Below are positions 4,934 to 47,869 of a stretch of 64,000 bases of DNA, in pieces. The stretch spans positions 126,603-190,602 of the IMG/VR virus record IMGVR_UViG_3300027749_000039, one strand, 5' to 3'. Origin of the DNA: a virus. The position numbers were made by a program, and so were the translations under genes. The notes beneath the pieces are model-generated. The model searched no databases and was not told the DNA's origin. It saw nothing but the letters and a program-made list of their open reading frames with translations. Numbering within the stretch: the stretch's first letter is position 1; each line of letters opens with the position of its first letter.

Positions 4934-4969
4934 ATGAAACAATATAAACAGATTAAACAAAAACAATAA
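4934..4969 (+). CDS. Lys-rich mini leader peptide MKQYKQIKQKQ
   Basis: 4 AAA codons in 11, directly upstream of three tRNA-Lys genes; followed by two mutually exclusive hairpins. Confidence 0.6.
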   Translation: MKQYKQIKQKQ

Positions 4970-5001
4970 GTTAGGCTCCTATGGATGCTTAACAAATATA
5001 A

Positions 5002-5244: not shown

Positions 5245-6513
5245 ATGTTAGAAATAAAATTATTTAGGCAAAATAAGGACCTAATTATAGAAGGACTTAA
5301 AAAGAAAAATTTTAAGCAACTTAATTTAGTTGATGAAATTATTAAATTGGATGAAGATTTAAGAAAATTAAAACAGGAAACTGAAAATTTAACTTCTGTT
5401 ATTAATAAAAATAATAGCGAAATTGCAAGATATATTAAAACAGATGCAGTTAAGGTAGAAAATATTAAAACTCATAATATTATTTTAAATGAAAAAATTG
5501 AGGAATTAACTAATATACTAAATCAAACTGAAAACGAGTTATTGGATAATTTAATTCAATTACCAAATCTTCCAAATCAAATTGTAGAAATAGACAATGG
5601 TAATGAAGCAACTAATGGTAATGTTATTATAAGAGAAAACTTAACTCAGTGTACACAAGGTAAACCTCATTGGGAAGTAATTAAAGATTTAAATATAGTT
5701 AGTTTTGAACTAGGAACTAAAATTACTGGTGCTGGGTTTCCTGTTTATATCGGAAAAGGCGCAAGATTACAAAGAGCTTTAATTCAATATTTTTTAGATT
5801 ATAATACTAATGCTGGTTATACAGAATATAATATACCATTAATGGTTAATTATGATTCTGCATATGGTACAGGACAACTCCCTGATAAAGAAGGTCAAAT
5901 GTATTATGCTGAAAAGGATAATTTATACTTAATTCCAACAGCAGAAGTTCCTTTAACTAATATCTTTAGAGATGAAATAGTTAATTTGCCCATAAAAATG
6001 ACAGGACATAGTGCTTGTTTTAGAAGAGAAGCTGGCGCACATGGTAAAGAAGTAAGAGGGTTAAATCGAGTTCATCAATTTGAAAAAGTTGAAATAGTTC
6101 AATTAGTTCAACCTGATAAAAGTTATGAAGTATTGGAAGAAATGGTTTTACATGTTGAGAACTTGATAAAAAGCTTAGAATTACCATATAGAATACTTAA
6201 ATTAAGTGGCACAGATATGAGTTTTGCATCTGCTTTAACTTATGACTTTGAAGTATATAGTGCGGCTCAAGACAGATGGTTAGAAGTAAGTTCTGTGAGT
6301 AATTTTGAAACTTTCCAATCTAATCGTATGAAAATTAGATTTAAAGAAGATAAAAAGAACAAATTAGTTCATACTTTAAATGGAAGTTCTTTAGCATTAC
6401 CAAGAATAATGGCTTGCTTATTAGAAAATAATCAAACACATGAAGGTATAAAAATACCAGAAGTATTAATACCGTATTACGGTGACAAATTTTTAACAAA
6501 TGGAAAATTATAA
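5245..6513 (+). CDS. serS: Seryl-tRNA synthetase
   Basis: N-terminal coiled coil, LIPTAEVPL, CFRREAG..RGLNRVHQFEKVE, HTLNGSSLALPR. Confidence 0.97.
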   Translation: MLEIKLFRQNKDLIIEGLKKKNFKQLNLVDEIIKLDEDLRKLKQETENLTSVINKNNSEIARYIKTDAVKVENIKTHNIILNEKIEELTNILNQTENELLDNLIQLPNLPNQIVEIDNGNEATNGNVIIRENLTQCTQGKPHWEVIKDLNIVSFELGTKITGAGFPVYIGKGARLQRALIQYFLDYNTNAGYTEYNIPLMVNYDSAYGTGQLPDKEGQMYYAEKDNLYLIPTAEVPLTNIFRDEIVNLPIKMTGHSACFRREAGAHGKEVRGLNRVHQFEKVEIVQLVQPDKSYEVLEEMVLHVENLIKSLELPYRILKLSGTDMSFASALTYDFEVYSAAQDRWLEVSSVSNFETFQSNRMKIRFKEDKKNKLVHTLNGSSLALPRIMACLLENNQTHEGIKIPEVLIPYYGDKFLTNGKL

Positions 6514-6758: not shown

Positions 6759-6807
6759 TAAAAGAAAATAAACAAAAAAGCATTTTAACAATATAATATA
6801 TACAATT

Positions 6808-7136: not shown

Positions 7137-7142
7137 CTAATA

Positions 7143-7230
7143 GGAAAGTTGGCAGAGCGGTTTAATGCGCTGGCACTGAAGCCGGTGACTGGCAAAAGCC
7201 GGTCCGTGAGTTCGAATCTCATACTTTCTT
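7143..7230 (+). pseudogene. Ser-type tRNA with a 6-nt anticodon loop (ACTGAA) and U73
   Basis: Ser-like body with long variable arm; the loop is one nt short of canonical CTTGAAA. Confidence 0.6.
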
Positions 7231-7234
7231 ATAT

Positions 7235-34431: not shown

Positions 34432-34500
34432 ATGAAAAACATCAATCTAAATATGAATTTGCTTAATCTAATGGAAACATTGGACAGGATTCTTATATAG
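34432..34500 (+). CDS. Attenuator leader peptide L5: MKNINLNMNLLNLMETLDRILI
   Basis: Leu codons CTA x2, TTG x2, CTT x2; Met x3; Asn x5. Confidence 0.88.
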   Translation: MKNINLNMNLLNLMETLDRILI

Positions 34501-36305: not shown

Positions 36306-37496
36306 ATGAAAAAAAAACAAGGATGGATTAAATCCATAAGACAATCCAAAGGATTAATATTTGTAGCAGTTACAGACGGAGCAAAAGATTTCCAAGTAAC
36401 AATAGTAGAAGCCGAATGTAAAATATACGGCGAACTAAAAGTAGGAGCTTCTTTTGAAGCACAAGGTAAAGATTCAACAACCCCAAAAGGATTATTTGAA
36501 TTTAAAGCATCTGAGTTTAAGATAATAGGTAGTTCCGATGACAGCTACCCTATACAGCCCAAGTCCCATGGTATGGATTTTCTACGTTCTATTTTAGAAT
36601 ATAGAGGAAAAACTAAACAATTTCAAGCAATTTGGAAAATTAGGCATCATTTAACACAGGCTATACATCAATTTTTTGATAGTGAAGGATTTTATCTCTA
36701 CCAAATTCCTATCATTATAGACAGCGATTGTGAGGGTGCCGGTGAAACTTTCCAAGTAAAAACTGAATGGTTAGATAGAGTTTTAACCGTATCAGGTCAG
36801 CTACATGGTGAAGTGGGTGCCATGAGTCTTGGTAAAATTTATTCATTTAGTCCATCTTTTAGAGCAGAAAAATCAGCCACCAAAAAACACTTAAGTGAGT
36901 TTTGGCATCTTGAACCAGAAATAGGATGGTATAGCATGGAAGATACTATGAGATTAGCAGAAAAATCTATAAAATTCTTTATCACATATGTATTAGAAAA
37001 ATGTGAATATGAATTTAAACAATTAGGTATAACTACTGAACATCTAACAGATGTTATAGAAAAAGAATGGAAAACTATTAAATACGAAGAAATAGTTAAA
37101 CTATTTGGTGTTAAATATGGTGAGGATATAAACTCGGAAACAGAACAGAAAATTGTAACACATTTTGGTTGCCCTGTGTTTATAACACATTATCCTGAAT
37201 CATTAAAGCCCTTTTACATGAAGAAAATAGGAGGTGTTGCTTTTTGTTTTGATTTGATTTTTGAATCAATAGGGGAATTAATTGGAGGTTCTGAGCGAGA
37301 AGATTCTTATGATAAATTAAAACAGTCTATGATAGATTCTGGTTTAGATTTAGATAAAATGGATTGGTATTTAAACACCAGAAAACACGGTTCAATTCCA
37401 CATAGTGGATATGGAATGGGATTTGAACGTCTGTTGATGTTTATTACAAAAGTTCCAAAAATACATGATGTTATACCTTTTCCTGTATCTTATTAA
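36306..37496 (+). CDS. asnS: Asparaginyl-tRNA synthetase
   Basis: OB fold, SDCEGAGETF, LTVSGQL, FRAEKS.T.KHLSEFWHLEPE, GGSERE, PHSGYGMGFER. Confidence 0.95.
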   Translation: MKKKQGWIKSIRQSKGLIFVAVTDGAKDFQVTIVEAECKIYGELKVGASFEAQGKDSTTPKGLFEFKASEFKIIGSSDDSYPIQPKSHGMDFLRSILEYRGKTKQFQAIWKIRHHLTQAIHQFFDSEGFYLYQIPIIIDSDCEGAGETFQVKTEWLDRVLTVSGQLHGEVGAMSLGKIYSFSPSFRAEKSATKKHLSEFWHLEPEIGWYSMEDTMRLAEKSIKFFITYVLEKCEYEFKQLGITTEHLTDVIEKEWKTIKYEEIVKLFGVKYGEDINSETEQKIVTHFGCPVFITHYPESLKPFYMKKIGGVAFCFDLIFESIGELIGGSEREDSYDKLKQSMIDSGLDLDKMDWYLNTRKHGSIPHSGYGMGFERLLMFITKVPKIHDVIPFPVSY

Positions 37497-44007: not shown

Positions 44008-44036
44008 ACTTTAATCCAATTTATCATATAAGTTAT

Positions 44037-44360
44037 ATGATAAATTGGATTAAAAAATTATTTAAGAAAAAAGAAGAAATCCCTGCTTCTGTGTCGTCCA
44101 TCACAGAATGGGTCGATGAAAAAGGTGTTCCGCACAAAAAATTTGTAATAGCAGTTGGTAATTCTTCAAAAGAAAAAGCCGAAGAACAAATTGGAAAATT
44201 AATTGCTTCTTATAAAGAAGATGTAGAATGGGATGATTCTATAGGCGAACTAAAAATCAATGGTGAAAAAAACTTACCTTATAACAAAACTATTTGGTTT
44301 CCTTCACCTGATACCGATAGTGGTGTAAAAATTGAAGAAATTAAATCAGATAAAAAATAA
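44037..44360 (+). CDS. Small protein resembling an internal segment of T4 gp20-like portal proteins
   Basis: KKFVIAVGNSSKEKAEEQIGKLIASYKEDVEWDDSIGELKINGEKNLPYNKTIWFPS parallels the gp20 F.IDVGNLPK.KAEQYL..IM..Y...YD..TGE...FWLP segment (recalled). Confidence 0.55.
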   Translation: MINWIKKLFKKKEEIPASVSSITEWVDEKGVPHKKFVIAVGNSSKEKAEEQIGKLIASYKEDVEWDDSIGELKINGEKNLPYNKTIWFPSPDTDSGVKIEEIKSDKK

Positions 44361-44378: not shown

Positions 44379-44409
44379 TTTGTATAATCACAAATACTTC
44401 GTATCTTTG
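44379..44409 (+). promoter_or_regulatory. Bacteroidota-type promoter for the Asp/Pro/Gln tRNA-glnS unit
   Basis: TTTG-N19-TATCTTTG. Confidence 0.8.
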
Positions 44410-44483
44410 TGTAACAAAAGCAAAGAATAAATACTTAATTAAAGACAACAAAAAAGCATTTTTAAAATACAATATATACTATT

Positions 44484-44579
44484 ATGAAAAACATTCTAAA
44501 CATACAAAACCCTCAACAACCGCAAGTTGATGTCGATCAGGATCCTGATACGATGAGGACTAACCATGTTAGAATGTAA
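44484..44579 (+). CDS. Attenuator leader peptide L6: MKNILNIQNPQQPQVDVDQDPDTMRTNHVRM
   Basis: 5 Gln, 3 Pro, 4 Asp in codons 8-22. Confidence 0.88.
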   Translation: MKNILNIQNPQQPQVDVDQDPDTMRTNHVRM

Positions 44580-44602
44580 ATGAATTATATTACATTTTTA
44601 AT

Positions 44603-44635
44603 AGCCAGTTAGTCGAAAGATTAACTGGTTTTTTT
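44603..44635 (+). terminator. Intrinsic terminator of attenuator L6
   Basis: AGCCAGTTAGTC-GAAA-GATTAACTGGTT-TTTTT. Confidence 0.9.
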
Positions 44636-44659
44636 GTTTTATATAGCGAGAATTAGTAA

Positions 44660-44748
44660 GGTTACGGCGAATAATGGCTGGTTCGCTACTCTGTCACAGT
44701 AGTAAGTAGGTTAAAACCGAAAAGAGGGTTCGATTCCCTTCGTAACCG
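44660..44748 (+). tRNA. tRNA-Asp(GTC) with long variable arm
   Basis: CTACT-CTGTCAC-AGTAG; G73. Confidence 0.75.
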
Positions 44749-44753
44749 CAAAA

Positions 44754-44827
44754 GGCACCATATATCAATTGGTTAGATTTTCCGCCTGTCACATGGAAGG
44801 CTACGGGTTCGAGCCCCGTTGGTGTCG
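44754..44827 (+). tRNA. tRNA-Asp(GTC), second
   Basis: Loop CTGTCAC, imperfect stem; G73. Confidence 0.8.
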
Positions 44828-44832
44828 CAAAA

Positions 44833-44906
44833 GGTCTGTTAGTAGAAATGGATACAATATCTCCCTGTCACGGAGAAGGTTGCCGGATCGTACCCGGTAC
44901 AGACCG
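44833..44906 (+). tRNA. tRNA-Asp(GTC), third
   Basis: TCTCC-CTGTCAC-GGAGA; G73. Confidence 0.9.
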
Positions 44907-44911
44907 CTAAA

Positions 44912-44984
44912 CGAGTATGAAGTGTAACCAGGTTGCACACGAATTTTGGGAATTCGTAGAGACGTTCGAATCGTACATGCTCGA
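44912..44984 (+). tRNA. tRNA-Pro(TGG)
   Basis: CGAAT-TTTGGGA-ATTCG; C1:G72, A73; weak T stem. Confidence 0.8.
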
Positions 44985-45037
44985 CAAAAAATCACTGCTT
45001 CGATTAAACTTTCTCCGACAATTTTAATATATATCTT

Positions 45038-45967
45038 ATGGATATAATTAAAATTATAAATGAAAGTTTTTCCATTAATGATTTAGCCAAAAAATTATAT
45101 GGTTATTCTAATGGCAAGAGCAATAAAAAAGCAATAGAAGTTTTAAAACAAAACGGATTTGATATATCTTTTTTTGACGGAAAAAGTAAAAATAGAAAAT
45201 ATCAAAAAATAAAAATTATTTGTCCTATTTGTTTTGTGGAATTTGAAACAACTGAAAATGGTAAAAAAACATGTTCTTCTTCATGTTCTAATTCTTATTT
45301 TCAACACGGGAAAAATAATCCTGATTTTGATCAAGAAAAATATGAGGAAAGATATAAAAAAGTATCTAATACATTAAAAACTAATATTCCTTGGAATAAA
45401 GGCAAAAATGATAAGGCAAAAATAAAAACATGTCTAAATTGTAAAATTGAATTTGAACCTAAAACACACACACAGAAATATTGTTGCAAAAAATGCCAAT
45501 TTTCATGTAAAGAGTATAGAAAATTATTAAGTGACAATGTTAAAGAAAGAATAAAAAATGGAACACATAAAGGTTGGCAATCAAGAAATATTGAGAGTTA
45601 TCCTGAAAAATTCTTTAAAAAAGTATTAAAAAATAATGGTATTGAATATATACCAAATAAAACAATAATAAAAAAAGACTATAATATAGAAGGCAATGGT
45701 AATTATTTTTTAGATTTTTATATAAAAGAAGGAAATATAGATTTAGAAATAGACGGCAAGCAACATGATTATAGGGTCGAACATGATAATGAACGAGATA
45801 ACAATTTATCAAAGCATTTCAACATTTATAGAATAAAATGGCAGTCAATAAATAGCGAAACAGGAAAACAATATATAAAAAAAGAAATTAAAAAATTTAT
45901 AAAATATTATAACAAAATGAAAAACTTAACTTTACAACAACAGCAACAAATGATTAAACTAGATTGA
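45038..45967 (+). mobile_element. DUF559/Vsr-like homing endonuclease with Zn fingers; last 16 codons are the Gln leader
   Basis: YFLDFY...LEIDGKQHD..R....YRIKW; CPIC, CxxxC motifs. Confidence 0.8.
45917..45967 (+). CDS. Attenuator leader peptide L7: MKNLTLQQQQQMIKLD (in frame with the endonuclease ORF)
   Basis: CAA CAA CAG CAA CAA run, typical MKN start; terminator and three tRNA-Gln follow. Confidence 0.85.
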   Translation: MKNLTLQQQQQMIKLD

Positions 45968-45988
45968 TGGTATTGTATAGTTATGTAT

Positions 45989-46020
45989 AAACCTATCAGT
46001 CTAAACTGATAGGTTTTTTT
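45989..46020 (+). terminator. Intrinsic terminator of attenuator L7
   Basis: AAACCTATCAGT-CTAA-ACTGATAGGTTT-TTTT. Confidence 0.9.
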
Positions 46021-46022
46021 AT

Positions 46023-46108
46023 GCTCCTCTGGTGTAATTGGTTAACATACTTGATTTTGAGTCAAGGGACAGGTAATGCAAGTCAGGGTTCGAATCCTTG
46101 GAGGAGTA
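46023..46108 (+). tRNA. tRNA-Gln(TTG) with long variable arm
   Basis: CTTGA-TTTTGAG-TCAAG; A73. Confidence 0.75.
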
Positions 46109-46113
46109 CAAAT

Positions 46114-46185
46114 AGTCCAATAGTGTAACGGTTAGCACAACTCTCTTTGACAGAGTTAGTCTTGGTTCGAATCCAGGTTGAACTA
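46114..46185 (+). tRNA. tRNA-Gln(TTG), second
   Basis: ACTCT-CTTTGAC-AGAGT. Confidence 0.85.
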
Positions 46186-46191
46186 CTACAA

Positions 46192-46262
46192 TGTTCTATG
46201 ATGTAATGGTAGCATAAGAGCTTCTGATTCTCTTTGTATTGGTTCGAGTCCAATTAGAACAA
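46192..46262 (+). tRNA. tRNA-Gln(CTG)
   Basis: AGAG-C-TTCTGAT-T-CTCT. Confidence 0.82.
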
Positions 46263-46279
46263 CTAAAAATAATAATTTT

Positions 46280-47869
46280 ATGAATTTTATAGAAGAAAAA
46301 ATTATTGAAAAAGTAAATCGTGGAATTAAGCCGGTGCTTCGCTTTCCGCCCGAACCAAACGGAAAATCATTGCACTTGGGGCATGCCAAGTCAATGTGTT
46401 TAAATTTTGGATTGGCAGAGAAATATAATGGTGAATGTAATTTAAGGTTTGATGATACAAATCCTTCTGCTGAAAAAGCGGAATATGTAGATGCAATCAT
46501 TAATGATATAAAGTGGCTTGGATTTACTCCAACACGTATAGAACACACATCTAATTATTTTGAAATAATATTTGAATATGCGGTTAGATTAATTGAAAAA
46601 GGGTTAGCATATGTTGATGATTCTACATCAGAAGAAATTGCTAGTATGAAAGGAACTCTTAATGCACCTGGTATTGATTCACCATATAAATCAAGAACTA
46701 TTTCCGAAAACTTAGATTTATTTTATCGTATGAGAAATGGTGAATTTAATAATGGTAAAAAAACATTAAGATTAAATATTGACATGACTTCACCTAATAT
46801 GATATTAAGAGATCCAGTTATATATCGGATTATGCATGAAACACATCATAATACAGGTGATAAATGGTGTATATATCCTTTATATGATTTTGCGCATCCG
46901 ATATCTGATTATATTGAAAGTATATCTGATTCATTATGTACCTTGGAGTTTGAAGTTCATAGACCATTGTATAATTGGATATTAGAAAATTTAGATTTAA
47001 AATATCCGTTACCTGAGGAAACTGAGTTTGCTCGTTTAAATGTTTCTTATAATGTAATGAGTAAGAGGAAGTTAAAAACATTAGTAGATGAAAATTATGT
47101 AACAGATTGGGATGATCCAAGATTATTAACATTATCTGGATTAAGAAGAAAAGGATATACACCGACATCAATTAAATCATTTTGTGAAACAGTTGGTTAC
47201 ACTAAAAGAGATTCTTTGATTGATTTTAGACTATTAGAAGAGTGTTTACGTTCTGACTTAAATAAGTTAGCATTAAGATATATGGTCGTTTTAAATCCAC
47301 TTAAAATTACTATTATTAATTATAGTGGTGAAGAAAAATGTGTTATTGAAAATAATCCTGAAAATGTAGAAGATGGAATAAGAGAAGTTATTTTTACTAA
47401 GGAATTATTTATTGAAGCAGATGATTTTAGAGAAATCGCTAATAACAAATATCATAGATTAAAAATAGGTGGTGAAGTTAGATTAAAGGGAGCTTATATT
47501 ATAAAAGCAGAAGAAGTAGTAAAAGATGAATTAGGTAATATAATTGAAGTTAAATGTATTTATGATCCTACTACTAAATCAGGTGAATCTGATAGAAAAG
47601 TAAAGGGCACTATACATTGGGTATCTACTTCTTATAATAAAGAAATTATTGTAAATGAGTATGAAAATTTATTTACAGAAGAAATACCAGAAACTTTTGA
47701 TATTATCAAAAGTTTAATAATAAGTAAACCTGCAATAGCAGAATTAGCAATAGAAAATACTGTTATTAACAAAGCAGTTCAATTTATGAGGAATGGCTAC
47801 TTTACTTTAGATAAAGATGGTAGTTTTATAAAAACAGTGTCATTAAAAGATGGATTTAAAGAAAAATAA
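46280..47869 (+). CDS. glnS: Glutaminyl-tRNA synthetase
   Basis: RFPPEPNG.SLHLGHAKS, LRFDDTNP, SLCTLEF, VMSKRKL, beta-barrel KVKGTIHWVS. Confidence 0.96.
   Translation: MNFIEEKIIEKVNRGIKPVLRFPPEPNGKSLHLGHAKSMCLNFGLAEKYNGECNLRFDDTNPSAEKAEYVDAIINDIKWLGFTPTRIEHTSNYFEIIFEYAVRLIEKGLAYVDDSTSEEIASMKGTLNAPGIDSPYKSRTISENLDLFYRMRNGEFNNGKKTLRLNIDMTSPNMILRDPVIYRIMHETHHNTGDKWCIYPLYDFAHPISDYIESISDSLCTLEFEVHRPLYNWILENLDLKYPLPEETEFARLNVSYNVMSKRKLKTLVDENYVTDWDDPRLLTLSGLRRKGYTPTSIKSFCETVGYTKRDSLIDFRLLEECLRSDLNKLALRYMVVLNPLKITIINYSGEEKCVIENNPENVEDGIREVIFTKELFIEADDFREIANNKYHRLKIGGEVRLKGAYIIKAEEVVKDELGNIIEVKCIYDPTTKSGESDRKVKGTIHWVSTSYNKEIIVNEYENLFTEEIPETFDIIKSLIISKPAIAELAIENTVINKAVQFMRNGYFTLDKDGSFIKTVSLKDGFKEK

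Follow-up and report, generated by a model that had tools for sequence, protein, structure and literature searches.

A short open reading frame (ORF) with a core of Gln, Pro and Asp codons, found on a 190.6-kb viral contig between a Bacteroidota-type promoter motif and an intrinsic terminator directly ahead of tRNA genes for Asp and Pro, probably forms part of a ribosome-mediated (leader-peptide) transcription attenuator that would allow read-through when any one of three aminoacyl-tRNAs is limiting. The attenuator reading had been put forward in an earlier note made from the letters of this DNA. It is supported at the level of sequence: promoter, conserved short ORF, matching codons, antiterminator strand and terminator are all present, and all are kept in 10 orthologues.

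The window, i.e., the whole 64-kb stretch of this contig that was analysed, has a G+C content of 28.7% and carries 45-49 tRNA genes, which are clustered and co-oriented. Its synthetase genes were assigned via Pfam to GlnRS, SerRS and an Asp/Lys/Asn-type class II synthetase. The nearest public relatives are the uncultured huge phages LR756502 (642 kb) and LR745206 (635 kb), which share approximately 69-71% nucleotide identity with parts of the query (BLAST). Huge phages of >634 kb have been assigned to the clade "Mahaphage" with Bacteroidetes as predicted hosts, in a description that leaves attenuators, leaders and terminators unmentioned (PMC7162821).

The leader, its promoter and the downstream genes

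The following features make up the unit; the antiterminator and the anti-antiterminator helix are predicted from folding.

44379-44409, + strand: Bacteroidota-type promoter motif, -33 TTTG (44379-82), 19-nt spacer, -7 TATCTTTG (44402-09)
44484-44579, + strand: leader ORF, ATG 44484, TAA 44577-79, 31 codons, encoding MKNILNIQNPQQPQVDVDQDPDTMRTNHVRM
44491-44503, + strand: 5' strand of the anti-antiterminator, predicted to form a long-range helix with 44566-44577 (3' end of the ORF)
44505-44549, + strand: regulatory codon block, codons 8-22, with Gln x5 (CAA x4, CAG), Pro x3 (CCT, CCG, CCT) and Asp x4 (GAT)
44532-44554, + strand: small hairpin in the regulatory block, GTCGATCAG/GATC/CTGAT.CGA, present in minimum-free-energy folds
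44558-44614, + strand: predicted antiterminator, outer GACTAAC (44558-64):GTTAGTC (44608-14), inner 44567-79:44590-603
44603-44635, + strand: intrinsic terminator, 12-bp stem, GAAA loop, U7, -15.7 kcal/mol
44660-44749, 44754-44828 and 44833-44907, + strand: three tRNA-Asp(GTC) genes, the first of 90 nt with a long variable arm
44912-44985, + strand: tRNA-Pro(TGG), 34.5 bits (Infernal, cut-off 29)
45038-45967, + strand: DUF559 ORF, 309 aa, endonuclease-like domain (Pfam, E = 1.2e-6)
45917-45967, + strand: Gln leader (putative second attenuator), encoding MKNLTLQQQQQMIKLD
45989-46016, + strand: terminator of the Gln leader
46023-46263, + strand: tRNA-Gln TTG, TTG and CTG
46280-47869, + strand: glnS, glutaminyl-tRNA synthetase (Pfam tRNA-synt_1c, E = 1.4e-97), at the distal end of the unit

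Promoters of Bacteroidetes follow a -33/-7 consensus, and TTTG-N19-TATCTTTG at 44379-44409 matches it. The looser pattern TTTG-N17-22-TAnnTTTG occurs 23 times in the window compared with 5.1 +/- 2.1 times in shuffled sequences, and lies approximately 50-85 nt upstream of the window leaders L2, L3, L4, L5 and L6, the last of these being the leader studied here. Its ATG stands 74 nt past the -7 element. A Shine-Dalgarno sequence is absent upstream, as is expected in the phylum Bacteroidota.

Just 5' of the ATG, a block AAAAAGCATTTT..AAAA..ATATATAC is common to different leaders (44440-44483; 6770-6807; approximately 3185-3226 in L011), and it could serve in translation initiation, be an alternative promoter or be left over from a cassette duplication. 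An ORF of 107 aa (44010-44360) shows a Portal_T4 match in Pfam which is confined to an internal segment (positions 209-277; E = 1.1e-8), and a perfect 20-bp inverted repeat (44010-44054) overlaps its start. Within 2768-2991, a promoter motif (2768-2798) stands directly before two tRNA-Met genes with no leader or terminator between; the His/Phe/Trp leader (3030) comes after these genes and apparently shares their promoter, in series with them.

Codons 8-22 of the leader encode Q N P Q Q P Q V D V D Q D P D. The earlier note had counted 12 Gln, Pro or Asp codons among these 15, and a recount gave the same figure for what is the most extreme window of the contig: among approximately 381,000 15-codon windows in the six frames of the 190.6 kb, only this leader reaches 12/15, and the runner-up separate small ORF scores 7. 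D, P and Q account for 11.8% of residues in the 156 long ORFs of the contig, and the binomial probability of at least 12/15 is 2.5e-9. Counting against the attenuator reading, no tRNA of the unit serves the Asn codon or the two Val codons of the core, the latter of which are conserved. A second mini-ORF, MNYITFLIAS (44580-44612), has an ATG that abuts the leader TAA (TAAATG) and a TAG end inside the 5' arm of the terminator; some relatives have ATGAAAC approximately 10 nt upstream of the terminator.

The terminator arms lie at 44603-44614 (5') and 44619-44630 (3'), with T7 at 44629-44635. Only 29 nt separate the end of the stem, and 24 nt the U-tract, from the first tRNA gene, which leaves no room for a promoter, and the tRNAs must thus come from read-through. 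Terminators ahead of tRNA genes could just close upstream units, and translation of the leader is a prediction; the hairpin might then be a constitutive partial terminator or insulator that sets tRNA dosage, with the short ORF untranslated or irrelevant. This explanation is highly improbable, given that the ORF has its own promoter upstream, that its frame is kept with in-frame indels only, that no other stretch of the contig has such a codon composition, that leader codons agree with the array in this unit as in 41 others, and that the antiterminator strand keeps a fixed distance from the stop codon.

The genes reported downstream, Asp(GTC) x3, Pro(TGG), Gln x3 and glnS, were all located, tRNA-Pro only via Infernal or relaxed ARAGORN. 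Default ARAGORN missed this gene at 44912-44985; run at the 95% threshold, ARAGORN called it Pro(TGG). Its T stem is weak, with one A.C mismatch, and 44900-45000 rescanned alone with Rfam gave no match, despite 34.5 bits in the larger scan.

Several of the phage tRNAs with Asp, Gln or Pro identity reach 86-98 nt through an insertion of approximately 15-18 nt in the variable region (44660-44749; 46023-46109; L028 904-1089; L014 2139-2236). Such class II-like arms are unusual for these identities. ARAGORN also called a tRNA with a 4-base anticodon (ctga) inside the Ser/Arg array (7142-7231) and a tRNA(CTA) at contig position 54412-54485, outside the window, which may be relevant to stop-codon recoding. 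The stop codon of the Leu/Met leader (34432-34500) is TAG.

The presence of Gln codons in a leader that is followed first by tRNA-Asp and tRNA-Pro was examined through the Gln unit. No TAnnTTTG promoter motif occurs in the 1-kb gap between tRNA-Pro and the Gln leader of the window, and in four relatives (L002, L013, L018, and L026) only 29-33 nt separate the last tRNA of the Asp/Pro array from the start of the Gln leader. The close spacing and the motif-free gap indicate that the Gln unit is reached only through the first terminator, and two attenuators in series would explain the Gln codons of the first leader. Together with a tRNA-Gln inside the first (Asp/Pro) array of L020, these observations bear out the proposed link between the leader and the Gln tRNAs further on. 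How many Gln codons the first leader has also seems to go with the promoter-like motif before the Gln leader, as in L014, where the motif is present and the first leader carries a single Gln codon; L034 runs counter to this, and the relation is suggestive only.

L002, L013, L018, and L026 lack the DUF559 ORF and have the 29-33-nt gap in its place, and the site between tRNA-Pro and the Gln leader is occupied in relatives by either an insert of approximately 1 kb or a gap of approximately 30 nt. From this pattern, the ORF looks like a mobile (homing-type) insertion. Its frame enters the Gln leader MKNLTLQQQQQMIKLD without a stop in this window, and relatives carry free-standing orthologues of the Gln leader.

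Mutually exclusive folds and their conservation

GACTAAC (44558-64) had been proposed to pair with GTTAGTC of the terminator. The positions proved correct, with GTTAGTC (44608-14) inside the 5' arm, and folding places this 7-bp pairing (B:D) as just the outer tier of a two-tier antiterminator spanning 44558-44614. The antiterminator strand lies 12 nt before the leader stop codon. The stalled state was modelled with a ribosome set on codons 10-20, folding only the free RNA between the ribosome and the terminator loop. In silico, the best fold of this RNA is the antiterminator, at -14.8 kcal/mol with the ribosome on codons 16-20 versus -15.7 for the terminator, while a ribosome at the stop codon leaves no alternative structure (0.0 kcal/mol) in the window. 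The antiterminator of the window has z = -4.07 versus dinucleotide shuffles.

When no ribosome is placed on the RNA, folding it up to 44618 likewise yields the antiterminator as the thermodynamic structure, which implies that a basal off state needs the helix 44491-503:44566-77 to form co-transcriptionally. This helix, equivalent to the trp 1:2 structure, turns B:D into a pseudoknot and also occupies the inner antiterminator strand. The minimum-free-energy fold of the region 44470-44640 (-40.6 kcal/mol, z = -4.97) combines it with the apical hairpin 44532-54, a possible pause hairpin for RNA polymerase, and with the terminator.

Searched against Rfam at gathering thresholds, the window gave tRNA matches only, with no leader family, T-box or riboswitch; the His_leader, Leu_leader, Thr_leader, Trp_leader, and T-box covariance models were unmatched. 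The region 44400-46300 at E <= 1 gave only tRNAs and one chance-level XIST_intron match.

For the mechanism we infer translation of the leader, coupling of ribosome and polymerase, and conditional termination. Host RNA polymerase would start at 44379-44409, and a ribosome would translate the 31-codon leader. With ample Gln-, Pro- and Asp-tRNAs, the ribosome would reach the UAA at 44577, cover approximately 44562-44592 and block the antiterminator, upon which the 44603-44630 hairpin and U7 would release the polymerase near 44635. With any one of the three aminoacyl-tRNAs short, it would stall in codons 8-22 and leave GACUAAC (44558-64) and the inner strand free; these would pair with the terminator 5' arm once made, and the polymerase would read through. 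Read-through would give tRNA-Asp x3 and tRNA-Pro and then reach a second, Gln-only attenuator before tRNA-Gln x3 and glnS. The products would lift the stall, resulting in negative feedback on decoding capacity.

Orthologues of the leader (n = 10; L001, L002, L011, L013, L014, L018, L020, L026, L028, and L034) were found through GlnRS, the terminator pattern and BLAST in LR756502, LR745206, IMG/VR, and metagenome contigs. The GlnRS metagenome scan gave phage-type leader/terminator/tRNA units only in L031-L034 (61-63% identity); most GlnRS metagenome matches (48-58% identity) were taken as bacterial GlnRS and set aside. Terminator-pattern matches in L022, L027, L029, and L030 (n = 4) lay inside genes and were judged to be chance.

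Promoter, MK(N/T) leader, D/P/Q core, terminator and Asp/Pro array are present in 10/10 orthologues, the leaders being preceded by the same promoter motif. The cores hold 7-12 D/P/Q residues, where approximately 3.7 are expected. All indels inside the leader ORF are multiples of 3 in the alignment of the 10 orthologues, and ATGAAAA and GAT-CAG-GAT are invariant. The Pro codons of the cores are synonymous variants (CCT, CCG, CCA, and CCC), which indicates a constraint on the codon family, and third codon positions of the leader vary more (0.78 versus 0.86 for first and second positions). Strand B is conserved as G(A/G)CTAA(C/T) (GRCTAAY), and its ACT/GCT codon has T at the fourfold-degenerate third base in 11/11 sequences, which indicates that strand B is constrained at the RNA level.

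The conserved N-terminal MKN(L/I)N.NI would suit a functional micropeptide, and tRNA precursors require processing, on which (or on RNA stability) stalling could act through RNase P/E access to the pre-tRNA. Very little probability is attached to either. Against them, the C-terminal half varies as a peptide and is conserved as RNA (strand B), the eight leaders of the window share the same architecture with unrelated peptide cores, and a canonical hairpin and U7 terminator with compensatory changes is present.

The attenuator reading was also followed in the folds of the relatives. The stalled-state fold is the antiterminator in 10/10 orthologues tested and in the window (-13 to -21 kcal/mol), the orthologue terminators have -13.5 to -19 kcal/mol, and a ribosome at the stop codon leaves essentially no alternative structure in the window and orthologues (0 to -1.9 kcal/mol). 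All antiterminator segments (11/11) beat dinucleotide shuffles (z = -2.9 to -7.7); the inner helix by itself is weak (z = -0.4 to -2.7), and its sequences differ among orthologues. An equivalent of the helix between the 5' and 3' parts of the ORF appears in the folds of all 11, with different sequences.

RNAalifold on the MAFFT alignment recovered just the terminator, with 12 pairs conserved and compensatory changes at 6/12, and the small hairpin as a 6-bp consensus at 44532-44554. The long-range helices were not recovered in this alignment and were assessed one sequence at a time. In the 7-bp B:D helix of the orthologues, no double-sided covariation was found, the changes being one-sided and wobble-preserving. 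The terminator of L020 differs, and GTTAGTT in its loop still pairs with GACTAAC. The tRNA genes are immediately 3' of the terminator in all orthologues. L034 has a promoter-like motif and L018 a long spacer after the terminator, and some relatives may also transcribe the array independently of the leader.

Sister leaders and the natural signal

Seven more leader/terminator units, with peptide cores matching their arrays, are present in the window:

HFSKW leader, before a His/Trp/Phe/Lys array
S/R leader, before a Ser/Arg array
GAYE leader, before a Tyr/Glu/Gly/Ala array
NILVTCR leader, before an array of its ten anticodons
L/M leader, before a Leu/Met array
Q5 leader, before a Gln array
4934-4969: K-rich leader MKQYKQIKQKQ, before Lys x3, with a hairpin lacking a U tract

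Of the 40,320 possible assignments of leaders to arrays in the window, the true one scores best, with no tie. Cognate leader/terminator duplexes have a mean of -9.5 kcal/mol versus -5.9 for non-cognate ones, a value equalled by 2/5040 permutations, and antiterminator strands all end no more than approximately 17 nt ahead of the stop codon, or, in L7, overlap it. Automatic detection in 27 loci yielded 42 leader-terminator-array units with a cognate fraction of 0.308, compared with 0.139 +/- 0.016 after permutation; none of 20,000 permutations was as high (p < 5e-5).

Leaders change along with split or merged arrays in relatives. The GAYE leader, for instance, is split into YE before Glu/Tyr arrays and IGA before Ile/Gly/Ala arrays. 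The 735-kb LR756501 has a TPAVRG leader before an Arg/Thr/Val/Ala/Gly/Pro array, and no leader was detectable at its Asp-containing array. A crude scan of the Prevotella phage Lak-A1 detected no leader/terminator units. The Lys leaders MKQYKQIKQKQ, MKTKRKYKR, and MKTKLKYKR (with their hairpins at 4934-5001; L003 2091-2161; L007 2137-2209) have a hairpin at a conserved position without a U tract, and the Lys unit may work without intrinsic termination.

Two natural signals are conceivable: depletion of tRNAs, for example through shut-off or the anticodon nucleases of the host, and starvation for amino acids. Charging is what classical attenuators sense, and units of the window end in synthetase genes, namely glnS, serS (5245-6513; Pfam) and the Asp/Asn-type class II synthetase (36306-37496; Pfam), the latter two at the distal ends of their tRNA units. 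The same machinery might therefore respond to starvation (uncharged tRNA) and serve the distal glnS as pheM does for pheST, with the tRNAs as passengers. We consider this unlikely, since glnS is the only synthetase found in the unit (among ORFs up to glnS), Asp and Pro codons dominate the leader, and the tRNAs come directly after the terminator in all orthologues. Several sister units, as far as they were followed, consist of tRNA arrays.

More tentatively, and with somewhat less than an even chance of being right, the attenuator may be a module of a phage decoding-capacity homeostat in which each array of this clade of the largest known phages is on only when ribosomes stall on its codons, with gates in series. 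Stalling could then arise from depletion or cleavage of host tRNAs by anticodon-nuclease defences or from phage-driven host shut-off. The Q/P/D leader followed by the Q leader would be hierarchical: Gln tRNAs and GlnRS would need a Gln-codon signal that opens both gates.

If the attenuator reading is right, the largest phages would use host ribosomes to monitor translation codon by codon and would replenish exactly those tRNA sets that are in short supply. The reasons for phage tRNA expression and its timing would then have a concrete, testable explanation, one tied to tRNA-targeting defences and to codon-usage mismatch. The leaders would be a sequence-encoded roster of the tRNAs of their operons, of use in annotation and in synthetic tRNA-sensing switches.

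Comparison with known attenuators

To our knowledge, leader-peptide attenuation is not known for tRNA genes, and next to nothing is known of how phages regulate the tRNA genes they carry. Literature searches, together with a 2026 jumbo-phage review, turned up no account of attenuators preceding tRNA genes. New in this case would be tRNA genes as targets, direct feedback by the product, the setting in a phage and the arrangement in series, and a textbook mechanism would be extended to a new class of targets.

As in T-box riboswitches, genes of the translation apparatus would be controlled by tRNA status through a terminator and an antiterminator. Unlike the phage element, the T-box, of which there is no match in the window, binds uncharged tRNA directly and needs no leader translation.

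The pheM-pheST system of E. coli is a case of leader-peptide attenuation of a component of the translation apparatus. The phage unit likewise has a translation-apparatus target and ends in a synthetase gene, glnS. It differs in that pheST is protein only, whereas the phage unit places tRNAs first, would sense three amino acids and has two putative attenuators in series.

Multivalent attenuators are known from enterobacterial amino-acid operons, such as ilvGMEDA (Ile/Val/Leu) and thr (Thr/Ile), alongside trpL, hisL, leuL, and pheL. The phage element shares with these a short leader with several kinds of regulatory codons, mutually exclusive helices and an intrinsic terminator, as judged for the phage from sequence and folds, and a stop codon at a position where a ribosome that terminates would mask the antiterminator strand. 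In contrast to the enterobacterial systems, it belongs to a huge phage, has a Bacteroidota-type promoter and no Shine-Dalgarno sequence, carries its regulatory codons near the apex of the leader hairpin and matches no Rfam leader. It would regulate tRNAs and a distal synthetase rather than biosynthetic enzymes, and its product would feed back directly on the sensed step of decoding.
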